Source: an uncultured cyanobacterium (GTDB lineage Bacteria > Cyanobacteriota > Cyanobacteriia > PCC-6307 > Cyanobiaceae). From it: 64,000 nt of DNA. The stretch lies in NCBI GenBank assembly GCA_963697335.1, contig CAVONQ010000002.1, positions 1 to 64,000 on the forward strand, written 5' to 3'. The position numbers and the translations under genes were made by a program. The notes under the pieces are model-generated. The model was not told where the DNA came from, made no database searches, and saw nothing but the letters and a program-made list of their open reading frames with translations. Positions within the stretch are counted from its first letter, which is position 1; each line of letters begins with the position of its first letter. Positions 1 through 5,902 of the stretch are shown here, piece after piece.

Positions 1-268
1 GCAGCCACGATCTTATCCGAAGTTGAACAAGCCTGCAGCTCTGGGGCCAAGGGCTTACTGCAGAAACATCCGGCGGTATTTCATAATGGCTTTATCTTCT
101 GCCATGGGTAGAAACACCTGTCCTGCCCAAACCATTTCTGTGATGACTGTCTCCTGCTCAGCTTAGGGGCGCAGCCGAGCCTCCAGGCCAGTTCTCTCCT
201 TCTGAACCAGCCTGGATAGGGCAAGTAGGGCTATGGGCAGGCTTATCTTGCGCCCCTTCCGTGAGCGT

Positions 269-1327
269 TTAGCTGAGCAGTGGTCTCATTCCCCGCACAC
301 GCACAGCCAGGACTTCCATCACGCCGCCGCACTGGGGACACAGCACCGCTGGCTTGTGGCTCCGCTCAGAGCGATCGGGTAGCACGACCCTCAGCAGGAG
401 TTGCACCAACTGGATCAGGCGCTTGCCGTTGCCATGCAGCAGGCCAAAATCACGTACGCGCCGAAATCTTCTTGGCAGCACATGCCTCAGCAGCAGCCAG
501 AGGAAGTCACCACCTGAGATGGTCTGGATGATCTCCTTTCCCGCATTGTCCTTGGTGCGGAATGTCACCATCCCATCCTCGTCAGAGAGAATGTTCTTCT
601 CTGGCAGGACTCCACGGTAGAGGTAGCGTCCAAGATAGATCAGTGCCTTCTCGCCACGGCCCACTGATTTGCAGTGCACCACCCACTCTCGTGGGATCGT
701 GCTTTTGACCTGCAGGCCTAACTGTCGCATCCCCTCAAACCATTTTGCACGGAATACCCTGGCAAGGTTGGCCTCAGGAAACAGATAGCCCTTGGCTTTG
801 CGGCGCCATTCCCTTCTTTGCTCATGGATCGCACCTGCAGGTACAATCAGATGCACGTGAGGATGGTAGTCAAGTCGGCGGTTGTGCGTGTGCAGCACTG
901 CGTGCGCTCCGATCTTGCCGCTGAGCTTTGGATCACGGCGAGCGAAGGAATCGATCGTTTGCCAGCACGTTCTCAGCAGCAGATCATAGGTTGCTCTTTG
1001 ATGCTGCCAGAACACCGGCCTCAGCTCAGCCGGCACCGTGAAGGTGATCAGGAAATACTCCACCGGCAGCAGCTTGGCTCGTTGTCGTTCAATCCACTGC
1101 TGGCTTTCATGATGCTGGCAATGGGGGCAACTGCGATGGCCACAGGAATGGGGGATCTTGGCGCTGTGCTCACAATTGGAACATTGCAGCACCATCAGGT
1201 CGCTGCCTTGTCGGCGGCAGCGCCGCATCGCTTGCAGGGCCTGGCGATGACTCGGCAGTAGCTGAGGACCATGAAGCCGCTCCAAGTCGCCCTGGTAGCG
1301 CTCCACCAAGTGGGAGAGAAGAATCAT
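269..1327 (-). CDS. IS91-family rolling-circle (Y2) transposase
   Basis: N-terminal Zn-binding region (CSNC...SCGHRSCPHC), HUH motif HPHVH, YLGRY (Y-x3-Y), RVRDFGLL, C-terminal CPQC. Confidence 0.95.
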   Translation of the reverse strand: MILLSHLVERYQGDLERLHGPQLLPSHRQALQAMRRCRRQGSDLMVLQCSNCEHSAKIPHSCGHRSCPHCQHHESQQWIERQRAKLLPVEYFLITFTVPAELRPVFWQHQRATYDLLLRTCWQTIDSFARRDPKLSGKIGAHAVLHTHNRRLDYHPHVHLIVPAGAIHEQRREWRRKAKGYLFPEANLARVFRAKWFEGMRQLGLQVKSTIPREWVVHCKSVGRGEKALIYLGRYLYRGVLPEKNILSDEDGMVTFRTKDNAGKEIIQTISGGDFLWLLLRHVLPRRFRRVRDFGLLHGNGKRLIQLVQLLLRVVLPDRSERSHKPAVLCPQCGGVMEVLAVRVRGMRPLLS

Positions 1328-2232
1328 GATTCCTCCGCCCAGCGCAGCTGGAAGCCGTTCAGCAGCGTTTCAATGCGATCACCGGTGTGATCGCGCACCA
1401 CCTGGGTGATGTGGGCGTAGCGGGCCGTGGTGTTGCTATGGCTGTGGCCGAGCAGGGATTGGATCAGGCGCAGGTCCATTCCCTGCTCCAGCAGGTGGGT
1501 GGCATAGGCATGGCGCAGCGAGTGCACCGTGAGTCGCTTCTCGATCCCACACTCCAGCCGGGCTGCTCTGAGGGCTGCCTGCACACCGCTGGCATCCATC
1601 GGTGCACTGGCGATCCGCACGATGAACTGGCTGCCGGCCGGACTGGGAAAGAGCAGCCGCGGATGGCGGTGGGTCGTCCAGAAGCGACGCATGGCCTGCA
1701 GCGTCAGCACCGGTATCGGTACGTAGCGATCCTTGCCTCCCTTGCCATCGCGGATGTGCACGCGCCGCTGGCTGCCATCAATGTCCGCCACCTCCAGCGC
1801 CAGGCCCTCGCCGATCCGCAGGCCAAGGCTGTAGACCACCAGCAGGAAAATCCGATAGCGCAACTTGCGCACCGTATTGATCAGCCGATGCACTTCCTCG
1901 CGGGTGGGAACATCTGGCAGACTGCGCACACGTGGCGGGCGGATGATCTTGATCCACTCCATCTCGCGATCAAGCACATAGCGGTGGAAGAATTGCAGAC
2001 TGCAGAGATCAATCTTAATCGTGCTCCACGAATACTGCTCCAGCAAAGCAGTGAAGTACCCTTTCAAGTCATCAGGGCTGAGATCATCGGGGCAACGATT
2101 GAAATGGCCAGCCACGCGCCGCAACGTTCGGCTGTAGCTGTCAATTGTCTTGCTGCGTAAGCCGTGCAGCCTCATCGCCTTTACGTTCGCGTCAAACAGG
2201 CGATCAAAGCGCTCCTGTTCAGTAGGATCCAT
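1324..2232 (-). CDS. Tyrosine recombinase / site-specific integrase
   Basis: Catalytic set intact: GLRIGE (R), GKGGKDR (K), HSLRH, LGH, TARY (Y). Overlaps the transposase start by 4 bp (ATGA). Confidence 0.95.
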   Translation of the reverse strand: MDPTEQERFDRLFDANVKAMRLHGLRSKTIDSYSRTLRRVAGHFNRCPDDLSPDDLKGYFTALLEQYSWSTIKIDLCSLQFFHRYVLDREMEWIKIIRPPRVRSLPDVPTREEVHRLINTVRKLRYRIFLLVVYSLGLRIGEGLALEVADIDGSQRRVHIRDGKGGKDRYVPIPVLTLQAMRRFWTTHRHPRLLFPSPAGSQFIVRIASAPMDASGVQAALRAARLECGIEKRLTVHSLRHAYATHLLEQGMDLRLIQSLLGHSHSNTTARYAHITQVVRDHTGDRIETLLNGFQLRWAEES

Positions 2233-2409
2233 CGAAGTGGCTTCCCGTTGGGAAGATGAAGGGAATCAACGCATCAGTCGATGCGCATCCCTCAGTGTCT
2301 TCCCGGAATCAGTCGCCAGCCACAACCCAGCGGGGGCTGCTCAGCTCTCGCCCTGAGCATCATTCTGCGACATGCCCTCAAGGCGCAGAGCCTTGAATTG
2401 ACAAGAGTT

Positions 2410-2418
2410 TGCTATAAT
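2410..2418 (+). promoter_or_regulatory. Outward-facing extended -10 promoter element (TGCTATAAT)
   Basis: Exact TGnTATAAT, 37 bp inside the right end of the element. Confidence 0.5.
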
Positions 2419-2455
2419 CGTTCTTGGAATCTGCCGCGCAGCGGCTTAGTTCAAC

Positions 2456-2973
2456 GGATCAAAGGCCGCAAATCATCGATCATTCAGCTCAAGGGAGGTC
2501 CCAGCTGGCTGAACCAGCCGGTGTCCTGGAGCGCCACCATGCAGGTGTCCTCGCTGAAGCAACGGCAAGCCGCCGCTGAGGGCAGGGCCAACCCCCGCGA
2601 CATCGTCACAGGCTTCCGGGTGAACAACGCCATGGCCCGCAACTGGATCTTCAAGGGCTCCAGGGGCAGCGACCTGATCGACTTTCAATCTCAGGCTGGA
2701 GCGATCACCAAGCGCTCCCAGAGTGTGATCAACTTCGGCAAGGATGAAGTGCGCGATCAATTCTTCTTCACCAACAACACCAAGACCCATGGACCGTTCA
2801 ACCACATGCAGAACTTCGTGATCCGCGACTTCGGCCTCCAAGATCGGGTCACCCTGCGCAACATCGGCCGCAGCTTCGGCTTCAACGATCTGGTGTCCTA
2901 CGGCAACGGCGTGATGGGCTTCTCTGGTGTGGATCCCACCAAGCTGCGGGTGGTGCCGATCTCGGGGCTCTGA
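2456..2973 (+). pseudogene. 3' part of a hypothetical gene apparently interrupted by the element
   Basis: Host-like codon usage starts right after 2455; the ORF-track N-terminus (2281-2455) lies inside the element. Translation could restart at ATG 2539. Confidence 0.55.
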
Positions 2974-3099
2974 TCCCGATCGAGAGCTGCGCGCGCAGGG
3001 TGTGGCAACGCTGAGCAGTGCCCTGCGCCCTGCTCGCCCGTGGCTCTCCGCTTGAGCCGGCGTCGCCGCCACCGGTCCCTTTGCTGGCCACCAGTTCCC

Positions 3100-3705
3100 A
3101 TGGCGGCCTCAGCGGGTTTTCTGTTGCCGCTGGCCTCCACGGCCTCATTGGTTCTGGTGCTCAGCAGCCTGTCGTTGCAGGCCATGGCCCTGCAGGAGCG
3201 GCGCCAGGTGGCCATGCGCCAGCGCCTGCAGGGCCGAGAGGATCGGCTGCTGGCCGCGGCCCAGGCCGTGGCCGGCGGCCTGCAACGCCGCCACCGTTGC
3301 CTGATCGCCCTGCCGCAGGCGGCCTGGGTGTTGCCTGGGCAGCAGGCCAGTGCCTGCGCCAAGGAGGGTGACGTTCAGGCCTTGATGACGGGGGAGTCGC
3401 CCGTTGCCGCTGCTCCCTACTCCCTGCTGCAGTACTGCCCGCAGCTGGCCCCACCGCCCGAACCGCCGGACCAGTCCTCTGCAGACCCTGAGGCGCCCCA
3501 GCTGCCCGAGCCGATGCTGGAGGCCCAGCTGCTGCTGGAGATCCTGGAGCAGGATGGGGCTGCCTATCGCTCAGCCGCCCGGTTGCTGTGGAGCTGGGGA
3601 CCTGGCCCCACACCGCGTCTGCGAGGCTTCCAACATCTGGGGCTGCGCAGCGCTGAGGAGCCGGTGCCGTCCTGTTCCCTGGCGGCCGCGGCGGGCAACC
3701 CGTGA
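3100..3705 (+). CDS. PilX/GspK-like minor pilin
   Basis: AG|FLLPL followed by a hydrophobic helix, no Glu+5; first gene of the prepilin cluster. Start uncertain (3040 or 3100). Confidence 0.6.
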   Translation: MAASAGFLLPLASTASLVLVLSSLSLQAMALQERRQVAMRQRLQGREDRLLAAAQAVAGGLQRRHRCLIALPQAAWVLPGQQASACAKEGDVQALMTGESPVAAAPYSLLQYCPQLAPPPEPPDQSSADPEAPQLPEPMLEAQLLLEILEQDGAAYRSAARLLWSWGPGPTPRLRGFQHLGLRSAEEPVPSCSLAAAAGNP

Positions 3706-4148
3706 GCCTGGTGGAGTTGATGGTGTCGGCGGCGGTGTTCACTGCCTCGGCGACCTGCTCGTTGCAGCTGTGGAGTTCCACCAGCCAATGGAGCTTGGGT
3801 TCGGAGCGCCAGCTGCAGGCCCAGCAACAGCTGGACCAGGAGCTGCTGGCCGTGGAAGCTGGGTTGCAGCAGCGGGCGGGGCAGCAGCTGTACGCCGATT
3901 GCCGCAGCGCCGCCCAGTCTCTGCTGCTGGCCGCGGCGGCTCGGCCGGATGCTCTGCCGAGCGAGCCCGTGGAGGTGAAGGTGCGCCACGCCGACCAGGA
4001 AGGCCGACTCCAGGTGCGGGCCCACGCCCCAGCCGCAGGCCTCAGCCGCGAGCTTCAGCTCGATCCCGCCGCCTACGGCCTATGCGGTGCTGTGGACCCG
4101 GACGACGACGCTAGGGCGCCTGAAGCCGCGCAGGAGGAGCCCGGATGA
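3702..4148 (+). CDS. Minor pilin-like protein
   Basis: Begins (M/V)SLVELMV with Glu+5 and a hydrophobic helix; GTGA overlap with the upstream gene. Confidence 0.7.
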   Translation: MSLVELMVSAAVFTASATCSLQLWSSTSQWSLGSERQLQAQQQLDQELLAVEAGLQQRAGQQLYADCRSAAQSLLLAAAARPDALPSEPVEVKVRHADQEGRLQVRAHAPAAGLSRELQLDPAAYGLCGAVDPDDDARAPEAAQEEPG

Positions 4149-4645
4149 AGGTGCACGGCCAGCCTGCCTTGGGCACCTCCCGCTGCTCCAGCGCCGGCTT
4201 TTCGCTGGTGGAGGCGCTGATGGTGCTCACCCTGCTGGGCCTGATGGCGGCCCTGGTGATCGACAGCGGTCGCCGCCAGCTGGCGGCGGTAAAAGTGGAG
4301 TCGGCCGCCCGGCGGCTGGGCACCCTGCTGGAGCACAGCCGCGAGCGGGCCGAGGGCAGCCGCCAGCCGCTGGATCTGCCCCTGCACGGGGAGGAGGGCC
4401 TGGAGGCCCGGGTGCGGGAGGGCGACGCCAGCCTGCAGCTCGATCACACCCTTCCACCGCTGCTGCGCTTCACGGCCAACGGCCTGGCGATCGATGGCGG
4501 CACCGCCGTGATCGGCAGCGCCGGCACCGACCTGCGCCGCTGCCTTGTGATGTCCCCGCCCCTGGGGATCGTGCGGGTGGGCCGTTATCAAGGCGATCCA
4601 GGCACCCTGGCCAGTGACGCCTGCCTGCCAGACCCCAGCCTCTGA
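4145..4645 (+). CDS. FimT/GspH-like minor pilin
   Basis: AG|FSLVEALMVLTLLG prepilin cleavage/methylation motif. Confidence 0.8.
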   Translation: MKVHGQPALGTSRCSSAGFSLVEALMVLTLLGLMAALVIDSGRRQLAAVKVESAARRLGTLLEHSRERAEGSRQPLDLPLHGEEGLEARVREGDASLQLDHTLPPLLRFTANGLAIDGGTAVIGSAGTDLRRCLVMSPPLGIVRVGRYQGDPGTLASDACLPDPSL

Positions 4646-4654
4646 TCCTGAAGC

Positions 4655-5254
4655 ATGGGCCTACGCCGCCGCTGGTCCCTGGGCCCTGCCGCCCGCCGCC
4701 CGGGCCGCCGCTCGGCCCGGGGCTTTTCACTGGTGGAGCTGTCGCTCACCCTGCTGCTGAGTTCGGTGCTCAGCACGTTGATGCTGCAGCTGCTGCTGAA
4801 CGAGGGCCGCAGCGGCCAAAAGCTGGCCCGGCTGCTGCGGGAACGCCAGGCCAGCGCTCGGGCCTTGCAGCTGATCCGCGCCGAGGTGCAGCAGGCCAGG
4901 GACGTGCGGCTGGGCGCGGCCATCCAGGCCGGCAGGGCCGGCACCTGCGCCAGGGCCGGGCGGCAACTGGTGCTGCAGCTCCACTCCCCCGCCGGCACGA
5001 TCACCTACGCACGAGGCCCCGCCGGCGATGCCATCTGGCGGGGGGAGGTGGTGTGGCGCTGCGGACCCTCCTACGACCGCCTGGGAGGGCTCACGTCTGC
5101 CGCCCCCCAGACCCGCGTTCTGATCGACGGCCTGCAGCCCGGCGAGGGTCTGGAGGTGACCTCGCAGCCGGGCGTAGTGCAGGTTCGGTTAGATCGCCTC
5201 GGAGGCCGCTGGACCATCCAGGCGATCGCCGGAGTGGGCGAGGCACTCCCTTGA
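4655..5254 (+). CDS. PilW-like minor pilin
   Basis: Basic leader then RG|FSLVELSLTLLL. Confidence 0.8.
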   Translation: MGLRRRWSLGPAARRPGRRSARGFSLVELSLTLLLSSVLSTLMLQLLLNEGRSGQKLARLLRERQASARALQLIRAEVQQARDVRLGAAIQAGRAGTCARAGRQLVLQLHSPAGTITYARGPAGDAIWRGEVVWRCGPSYDRLGGLTSAAPQTRVLIDGLQPGEGLEVTSQPGVVQVRLDRLGGRWTIQAIAGVGEALP

Positions 5255-5324
5255 GCTCAGGGCGGGCTGGCACCCTCAAGGAGGCAGCGGCTCAGTCCCC
5301 AAGGGCGGTGAGGTTACATGAATA

Positions 5325-5362
5325 AGGCCTGAAACTCCGGGGGAATCGGATGCTTCAGGCCT
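5325..5362. terminator. Hairpin between convergent pilin genes
   Basis: AGGCCTGAA...TTCAGGCCT with inner TCCG/CGGA pairing. Confidence 0.55.
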
Positions 5363-5425
5363 CAAAATTGTGCCGATGTATCGTGAAAACTCTGCATTTA
5401 CCCTCAGGGGAGAACCCTGAAGGAT

Positions 5426-5902
5426 TCAGTTACGGGTTGGGATGCAGGAAGGGGCCGTGCCTGCATCCCAACCAGCTGCTGCTGCGCAAGTTGTGAGGCT
5501 TGTTGCTCCATTGGGAGTGACAGTGGCAACGGGCTCTGTTGTGACGTTGAAGTCATCTGCAGTTGCGGTGAAAGCAACCTGTGTTCCTGCTGCAGGGCAA
5601 GGACCGCCGCTGATGTTTCCAGGAATGTCCAAGGCAGCCTGCTCGCCCGTCACCTGGGCAGCAGTGCAGGCGCGTGCCACATCCATGACGGCCATCTGGG
5701 CCGCATTGATGCGGGCCCTGCCCTGCTGGTTGAGGAAGGCGGGGATCGCAACCGCCGAAAGCACCCCGATGATGATCACTACGATCAAGAGTTCCATCAA
5801 GGTGAAGCCGGCCGCCTCGCCCTTGTGTTTTTTAGAAGAGAGGCTCAGGGCCTGGATCAGGGCTCGCTGGGCCAGCAACCTGGTCTGCAGAGAAGTGGTC
5901 AT
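5426..5902 (-). CDS. pilA: Type IV major pilin-like protein
   Basis: AG|FTLMELLIVVIIIGVLSAVAIPAFLNQ; C-terminal Cys pair; hairpin just after the stop (about 5402-5423). Confidence 0.85.
   Translation of the reverse strand: MTTSLQTRLLAQRALIQALSLSSKKHKGEAAGFTLMELLIVVIIIGVLSAVAIPAFLNQQGRARINAAQMAVMDVARACTAAQVTGEQAALDIPGNISGGPCPAAGTQVAFTATADDFNVTTEPVATVTPNGATSLTTCAAAAGWDAGTAPSCIPTRN

Follow-up and report, generated by a model that had tools for sequence, protein, structure and literature searches.

An IS91-family insertion sequence with an integron integrase-like recombinase and attC-like joined ends in a picocyanobacterial genome

The first 2.5 kb of the 64,000-nt window analysed here (G000:C2:1-64000, its position 1 being the start of the contig) represents a copy of a roughly 2,477-bp insertion sequence of the IS91 family in a picocyanobacterial genome. 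Its coding content places it in a subgroup in which the gene of a tyrosine recombinase, IntI/Xer-like and catalytically complete, lies upstream of an HUH-Y2 transposase gene and is translationally coupled to it. Both genes are intact and coupled, as the original prediction from this sequence had it, and run on the minus strand, the recombinase at 1324-2232 and the transposase at 269-1327, with the stop codon of the former overlapping the start codon of the latter in ATGA. The contig start cuts off the last 22 nt of the element, and its features are as follows.

In the missing 22 nt: the other arm of the L-box hairpin and the terminal 9 nt, starting with AAC on the plus strand (placed by alignment with L002, L004, L005 and L006)
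1..21, minus strand: loop and one arm of the subterminal L-box hairpin, ori-like end (alignment with the same four loci, fold of L002, covariation)
22..33, minus strand: R'' box (22-28; GTTCAAC on the gene-sense strand) with a 5-nt extension, GTTGAACAAGCC, subterminal, 43 nt from the true end
34..268, minus strand: non-coding, from the transposase stop codon to the R'' box
269..1327, minus strand: IS91-family HUH-Y2 transposase, 352 amino acids (profile matches)
1324..2232, minus strand: tyrosine recombinase, 302 amino acids, Xer/IntI-like (profile matches, alignment with the host IntI)
2233..2432, minus strand: upstream non-coding, presumed promoter region
2433..2445, minus strand: small GC hairpin with a 5-bp stem and a 3-nt loop, ter-like end (folding)
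2443..2455, minus strand: terminal R' half-site with extension, GGCTTAGTTCAAC on the plus strand, crossover triplet at 2453-2455
2456..2535, no strand: target flank, intergenic, upstream of a 145-amino-acid open reading frame (ORF)

The transposase matches PF04986 (137.6 bits), PF14319 (91.5 bits) and NF033538 (350.1 bits, cutoff 125), and thus carries both the Y2_Tnp domain and the zinc-binding domain of the IS91 family. Behind the zinc-binding N-terminus follow the motifs HPHVH (H155-H159) and YLGRY (Y231, Y235); among 11 transposase sequences HPHxH and Y231 are invariant and Y235 is present in at least 90%. The recombinase matches PF00589 (130.3 bits) and PF13495 (57.8 bits) and is 32% identical to the integron integrase of its own host, while it stays below the cutoffs for IntI (TIGR02249, 165.8 bits against 265), XerD (155.8 against 329.6) and XerC (142.7 against 335.15). 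Conservation of catalytic residues across phyla holds for both proteins: in the recombinase, R139, K164, H237, R240, H263 and Y272 are invariant in eight sequences from four phyla. Both genes are under purifying selection (dN/dS 0.08-0.32), which for the recombinase argues for catalysis rather than binding alone. Synonymous divergence was also compared with an eye to co-inheritance with intI: in the same genome pairs, dS was 0.39 and 0.46 for the recombinase, far lower than the 1.13 and 1.03 of intI, but the transposase, at 0.77 and 0.93, did not show such a gap.

The extent of the element is defined by its other copies. It had been proposed that the unit is bounded by the inverted heptamer-containing sequences GTTGAACAAGCC (22-33) and GGCTTAGTTCAAC (2443-2455), and this repeat is real: with one extra base allowed, the heptamer pattern has exactly two occurrences in the 64-kb window and none in 100 shuffled versions, while a generic scan, which returned 235 inverted pairs, left it outside the top 25 owing to the indel. 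A second copy at a different site in the same genome (contig C16, locus L002), 99% identical, matches the window from 1 to 2456, and an alignment of this copy with complete ones from three further genomes of the genus shows homology on the left that runs 22 nt past window position 1 and then stops abruptly. A motif search across all fetched loci found the same sharp break in 7/7 left ends of other copies, each of which extends 43 nt beyond the repeat; the repeat at 22-33 therefore sits 43 nt inside the left end, and the proposed boundary at 22 fails. The right terminus at 2455 is exact, as all nine right ends (eight loci plus the window) diverge straight after GTTCAAC. Of the two heptamers, the right one is thus indeed terminal, and the left one is subterminal. 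Contigs from independent metagenomes leave the element at exactly the same two end bases.

No target duplication beyond the shared AAC/GTT triplet was found in the flanks of five full copies or between empty and occupied sites, which agrees with the predicted absence of flanking direct repeats; with neither target-site duplication nor long terminal inverted repeats, the element conforms to the IS91 family in this respect too. Several observations indicate mobility, namely the second copy at 99% identity, empty orthologous sites in relatives (described below), the breaking of contigs at the element in several genomes, and a 300-bp non-autonomous derivative (L124:2197-2496, in G028:C14) in which about 30 nt of the 5' terminus and some 110 nt of the 3' terminus are retained and which is inserted after an attI-like motif. 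Joints in public contigs (L002 1530->3929 in run X1, 1531->3930 in run X11) skip 2,398 nt between the end regions and give a weak hint that an ends-only derivative of about 80 nt may also exist, the shorter sides of these joints being just 20-26 nt long.

The window copy is a secondary, recent insertion outside any integron. The first unique base past the left end is also the first base of contig C14 of the same genome, on which lepA is found (TIGR01393, 987 bits), so that the window copy sits between lepA and the 145-amino-acid ORF. The original prediction had called for a search for further copies and empty sites; besides the C16 copy, this yielded the same intergenic region without the element in two relatives, G005 and G027, and the empty site in G005 has a single GAC where the source genome reads AAC-element-AAC. 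The 145-amino-acid ORF (window 2536-2973) has no match in Pfam or NCBIfam and is conserved beside lepA in both relatives, with 88% (G005) and 77% (G027) nucleotide identity over its start. A prepilin-type gene cluster follows at 3040-5902, in which the ORF at 5426-5902 (minus strand) has a GFxxxE N-terminal methylation domain and the ORF at 4145-4645 is weakly GspH-like, its neighbours being without a family match.

When the two ends of the element are joined, they take on the layout of an integron recombination site. Read on the gene-sense strand, the 5' end begins with GAAC directly after the flanking GTT and continues into a small GC hairpin, which lies 5-11 nt from the end in 34/35 distinct 5' ends of the family. 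In the 3' region, a short spacer separates the GTTCAAC box and its 5-nt extension from a 12-bp stem, which has one bulged base and a loop; a spacer of 6-7 nt and the final GTT come after it. Upon joining, this final GTT and the initial GAAC pair with the GTTCAAC box to form a 7-bp R box (GTTCAAC against GTTGAAC, plus the extension). The joined ends are thus arranged like an attC site (R-spacer-L-loop-L-spacer-R), relative to which the genes are oriented as in a cassette, and it is in the joined ends only that the whole architecture (R''/R' boxes of RYYYAAC/GTTRRRY type, spacer, bulged L boxes, variable loop) is found. Once circularised, the antisense strand would have the geometry of the recombinogenic bottom strand of attC, its 5' half containing the cleaved R box and its 3' half the bulged T. 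The likeness to integron core sites that the original prediction had seen in the heptamers is much stronger than that prediction could show: they are the R boxes of an attC-like structure, the copies sit at attI and attC, and the targets resemble GTTRRRY.

This structure is supported by covariation. An alignment of the L stem over 23 distinct ends (from 24 references; L079 was left out, its end duplicating that of L074) has 88.3% of its cells paired and changes on both sides in 10/12 pairs, values not attained in any of 500 shuffles; pairing in slid controls was 31-45%. In the core of the R box, 124 of 133 cells are paired over 19 distinct ends, with a switch from T.A to C.G at position 3.

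A scan of the family with one genome per species gave 602 recombinase relatives among 605 candidate stretches; 80 loci from many phyla were kept, and three plasmid loci brought the wider set to 83. The Y2 transposase gene follows the recombinase gene in 73 of these, several of the remaining loci ending at a contig edge. Both ends could be called automatically in 38 of 73 loci, the others being truncated by the contig, too diverged for the 12-nt test or long-looped; two miscalled loci (L094, L095) were dropped from the site counts, and a third (L038) was corrected by hand. Among 31 distinct sites, the triplet in the 5' flank is GTT in 28 (29 when the window flank is read in the same register), the last triplet of the element itself is GTT in 30, and GTT is followed by a purine in 25. 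Whichever way the flank is read, the GTTC/CTTG target of IS91 occurs at 0/31 sites. On the 5' side of the presumed cut, 24 different tetranucleotides are found in the 31 sites, and the triplet that follows is nearly invariant. Where copies have differing triplets (ATT/GTT, TTT/GTT), the cut lies after the first base, which fits all models. As a score for how attC-like the targets are, a partner R box with at most one mismatch was found in the 5' flank in 8/38 cases, two of them doubtful (one 135 nt away, the other from the miscalled L038), by a test that is too strict.

The element thus inserts, without duplication, at the GTT of GTTRRRY-like sites, which are attI, the R'' box of attC and, occasionally, a chromosomal look-alike such as that of the window copy. 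One case of attC is an IncC plasmid of Escherichia coli, in which the gene pair lies between aadA1 and qacEdelta1 of a class 1 integron, in the orientation opposite to the cassettes. Comparison with the true empty site, the aadA1 attC of plasmid R100, places the insertion at the GTT of the R'' box complement, where one GTT has become two. A copy in Salinivibrio has the same arrangement, at R'' and inverted to the cassettes, and relatives in many phyla occupy R'' boxes of attC sites.

Within the genus, the association is mainly with attI. The C16 copy lies 171 nt downstream of an integron integrase gene (TIGR02249, 465.8 bits) on the same strand, with a MazEF pair on its other side, and it is one of seven among 20 genus 5' junctions that share the strand of intI, or of its remnants, and lie 171-222 nt downstream of it in cassette orientation. 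Genome G018 has three different intI genes (L120 on C13, L121 on C30, L131 on C20), 80%, 71% and 62% identical to the IntI of the source genome, and behind each, at a distance of no more than about 180 nt, comes a copy of the element. A repeated motif is common to the spacers that separate intI from the element; in G004 this motif precedes GTT and an ordinary HicAB cassette, which means that the element occupies the normal attI crossover point. Three further junctions lie elsewhere in or near arrays, one behind the HicAB cassette of G004, one 1.9 kb from a partial intI and one inverted in the attC after a toxin-antitoxin cassette (G010); the remaining 10, including the window and G007 copies, have no intI in the fetched flank. 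Inversion relative to the cassettes is seen in G010:C42, the E. coli plasmid and Salinivibrio. In the wider family, a separate intI lies within 3.5 kb in 6/83 loci, and the intI beside one element is frameshifted (L042). Relatives whose recombinases are 88-92% identical occur in entries labelled Synechococcus sp. and Candidatus Regnicoccus.

Some details of these surroundings are recorded here in their own right. The intact integrase gene (L002:4124-5203) of the chromosomal integron on C16 shares its strand with the array, a layout called "inverted integrase". The MazE/MazF pair (L002:632-1317) is situated past the element, and intI is flanked on its other side by an aminotransferase gene. At the start of contig C15 of the source genome (L135:5-710) there is a second intI-like gene, in two frames and cut by the contig start, whose product is 56-72% identical to the C16 IntI. 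On the reverse strand of L033 (G004:C12), the HicA/HicB-like cassette, identified by reading the sequence without a family scan, lies between a free attI core and the element and has an attC with three bulged bases. The G007 copy (L034:11661-15595) is located beside contractile injection or phage-tail-like genes (gp19 tube, sheath, Pvc16_N). In G027, an IS3-family transposase gene (rve, rve_3, HTH_21; L032:10846-12030) stands between the 5' end of the element and the recombinase gene, and the same IS3 type is found 10 kb away.

Taken together, we hypothesize a hybrid route, in which the Y2 transposase copies out a single-stranded circle that the IntI-like recombinase then inserts at the conserved triplet, with host IntI perhaps also capturing it at attI; on balance, we lean towards this reading with modest conviction. 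The transposase would start at the ori-like end downstream of its gene, as in IS91, and stop at the ter-like end, with its hairpin and GTTC, releasing the antisense ("bottom") strand as a single-stranded circle. This strand would fold into the attC-like hairpin and be integrated by the recombinase at the AAC/GTT triplet, through a single-strand exchange of the integron type, after which replication would complete the insertion. The host integron integrase may, in addition, capture the element at attI like a cassette. The original prediction had already suggested that the two enzymes divide the work, and such a division fits both the anatomy of the element and the IS91 mechanism as set out in the cited parts of its published account (PMC13181058), although which enzyme performs which step is something that we infer.

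Several points weigh against this hypothesis. The strict GTTRRRY consensus is satisfied at just 11/31 distinct sites. A stretch of about 27 residues specific to IntI and present in the host IntI is missing in 7/7 element recombinases, and the missing domain is the one that reads extrahelical bases. Folding energies of single sequences are only weakly better than those of shuffles (z = -1.0 to -1.7), so that the structural argument rests on covariation instead. Public contigs aligned with the element contain no circle junction, although rare forms would not be visible in contigs. Since the triplet is present in both partner sites, the crossover may lie inside it or next to it, and either enzyme may make the cut. 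Finally, in the cited passages on IS91, TnpA alone inserts single-stranded circles, so the recombinase may be dispensable for integration (PMC13181058).

This last point leads to the strongest rival, pure IS91-type chemistry, in which the Y2 transposase would make all cuts and joins at RYYY|AAC, in the target as well as in the ter-ori junction (GTTC|AAC), leaving the recombinase an accessory role, for example in termination precision, target choice or copy-number control, like Orf121, which occupies the same upstream overlapping position in IS91. We consider this unlikely, though several points are in its favor. Not only does IS91 TnpA by itself suffice to insert bottom-strand circles, but Orf121, encoded upstream of tnpA with overlapping stop and start codons, modulates the precision of terIS, as described in the same passages (PMC13181058). 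The ter-like end of the element is likewise a small palindrome followed by GTTC, and a cut two bases from the integron position fits all junctions equally, since AAC is present in both partner sites. However, 24 different tetranucleotides in 31 sites, none of them GTTC or CTTG, beside a nearly invariant triplet, are the reverse of the IS91 rule and the pattern of integrons; the invariance of the six catalytic residues and the dN/dS values also tell against an accessory recombinase, and the R-box helix formed across the joined ends mirrors the substrates of IntI. The target pattern and the catalytic conservation both speak against this rival, and neither is decisive.

Alternatively, the element might be an ordinary cassette moved by host IntI through attC x attI recombination, its own enzymes idle in the copies beside intI, which we regard as distinctly improbable. 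The canonical attC geometry of the joined ends, the genes in cassette sense and the seven genus junctions at the attI crossover in cassette orientation, three integrons of one genome included, would all be expected of such a cassette, as would the position of HicAB between attI and the element in G004 if another cassette entered later at attI. The window and G007 copies, however, lie outside integrons, the adjacent intI of L042 is frameshifted, and the relatives on the E. coli plasmid and in Salinivibrio, G010 and G028 are inserted at R'' opposite to the cassettes, which canonical IntI recombination does not yield. A copy on a Herpetosiphon plasmid, moreover, has no annotated integron gene or cassette within 4 kb on either side, a region in which no search for intI was made. 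As for a transposon with terminal inverted heptamer repeats at 22-33 and 2443-2455 as its boundaries, such a repeat does exist and is not random, yet the left ends of all other copies, extending 43 nt past it, rule this model out.

Returning to the hybrid route, the anatomy of the element suggests a role for the recombinase that couples a single-strand-specific, integron-like integration to a rolling-circle transposase that produces single strands. What the window adds is a cyanobacterial lineage of such elements, their attI habit in cassette orientation, seen among others in three integrons of a single genome, a recent insertion outside integrons whose site is empty in relatives, the 300-bp ends-only derivative and the match to the ori/ter scheme of IS91. 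Alongside IS1111-attC elements and group IIC-attC introns, they would be a third kind of mobile element specific to integrons, and they occupy attI of chromosomal integrons in picocyanobacteria as well as attC in a clinical class 1 integron, which bears on the origin of attC sites and cassettes. As a tentative and rather doubtful extension, these elements might be self-mobilizing integron cassettes, for which the HUH enzyme makes the circle and an own IntI-like recombinase, without the extra domain of IntI, pastes the attC-like junction into GTT core sites, with capture by host IntI as well. If so, the family would be a living intermediate between IS91-like elements and the integron system, and could be a source of attC-like sites, miniature derivatives and rearrangements of cassette arrays, including those of clinical class 1 integrons.

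Compared with known systems, the element is closest to the IS91 family (IS91, IS801, IS1294, IS1294b), with which it shares the transposase family and its motifs as well as the absence of target duplication. According to the cited passages on that family, terIS is the end upstream of the genes, with a single subterminal palindrome beside the GTTC (or CTCG) cleavage site, oriIS lies downstream of tnpA beside the target tetranucleotide, a bottom-strand single-stranded circle, which alone was inserted, is the functional intermediate, and IS91 has an upstream ORF that overlaps the tnpA start (PMC13181058). The element matches this layout, as far as sequence can tell, with distinct ter-like and ori-like ends, the upstream one a palindrome beside GTTC and the downstream one a subterminal palindrome, and with an upstream ORF whose stop overlaps the tnpA start, as does orf121 in those passages (PMC13181058). 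By contrast, its upstream gene encodes a 302-amino-acid tyrosine recombinase rather than Orf121, and it targets the GTT triplet of GTTRRRY-like or integron sites rather than GTTC/CTTG. The comparison of junctions covers its own joined ends, which form an attC-like R/L structure.

The two-gene layout itself is already known. ISfinder lists IS91-family members with an upstream integrase gene (ISShvi3 and others), whose arrangement is the same as that of the element. In the literature open to full-text search, which leaves subscription journals, ISfinder and TnPedia outside, we found no description of attC or attI targeting, a GTT rule, an attC-like junction, a mechanism or a role of the recombinase for elements that combine IS91 with a recombinase.

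Integron cassettes resemble the element in the R''-spacer-L''-loop-L'-spacer-R' geometry, the RYYYAAC/GTTRRRY boxes, the bulged base, the crossover triplet and the position at attI in cassette orientation, to which the 32% identity of its recombinase to host IntI may be added. Unlike a cassette, which is a passive unit, it encodes its own recombinase and transposase, is multi-copy, occurs outside integrons as well, and is often inverted in arrays, at R''. Its recombinase differs from IntI in lacking the IntI-specific domain and in scoring below the IntI cutoff.

Two other groups of mobile elements share its preference for attC. IS1111-attC elements use a DEDD-type transposase, and group IIC-attC introns a reverse transcriptase and ribozyme; these enzymes are unrelated to those of the element, and neither group has cassette-like ends. 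In the passages cited here, both insert site- and orientation-specifically into attC, as the element does (PMC9229058). For the integration step, the nearest parallel is CTX phage, in which XerCD integrates the folded single-stranded DNA that arises from rolling-circle replication at dif, according to the cited part of that work (PMC9345347). In both cases a tyrosine recombinase would integrate a folded single strand made by a rolling-circle process, as we infer for the element; host enzymes act on a phage genome in the one, whereas in the other a 2.5-kb element encodes both enzymes itself.

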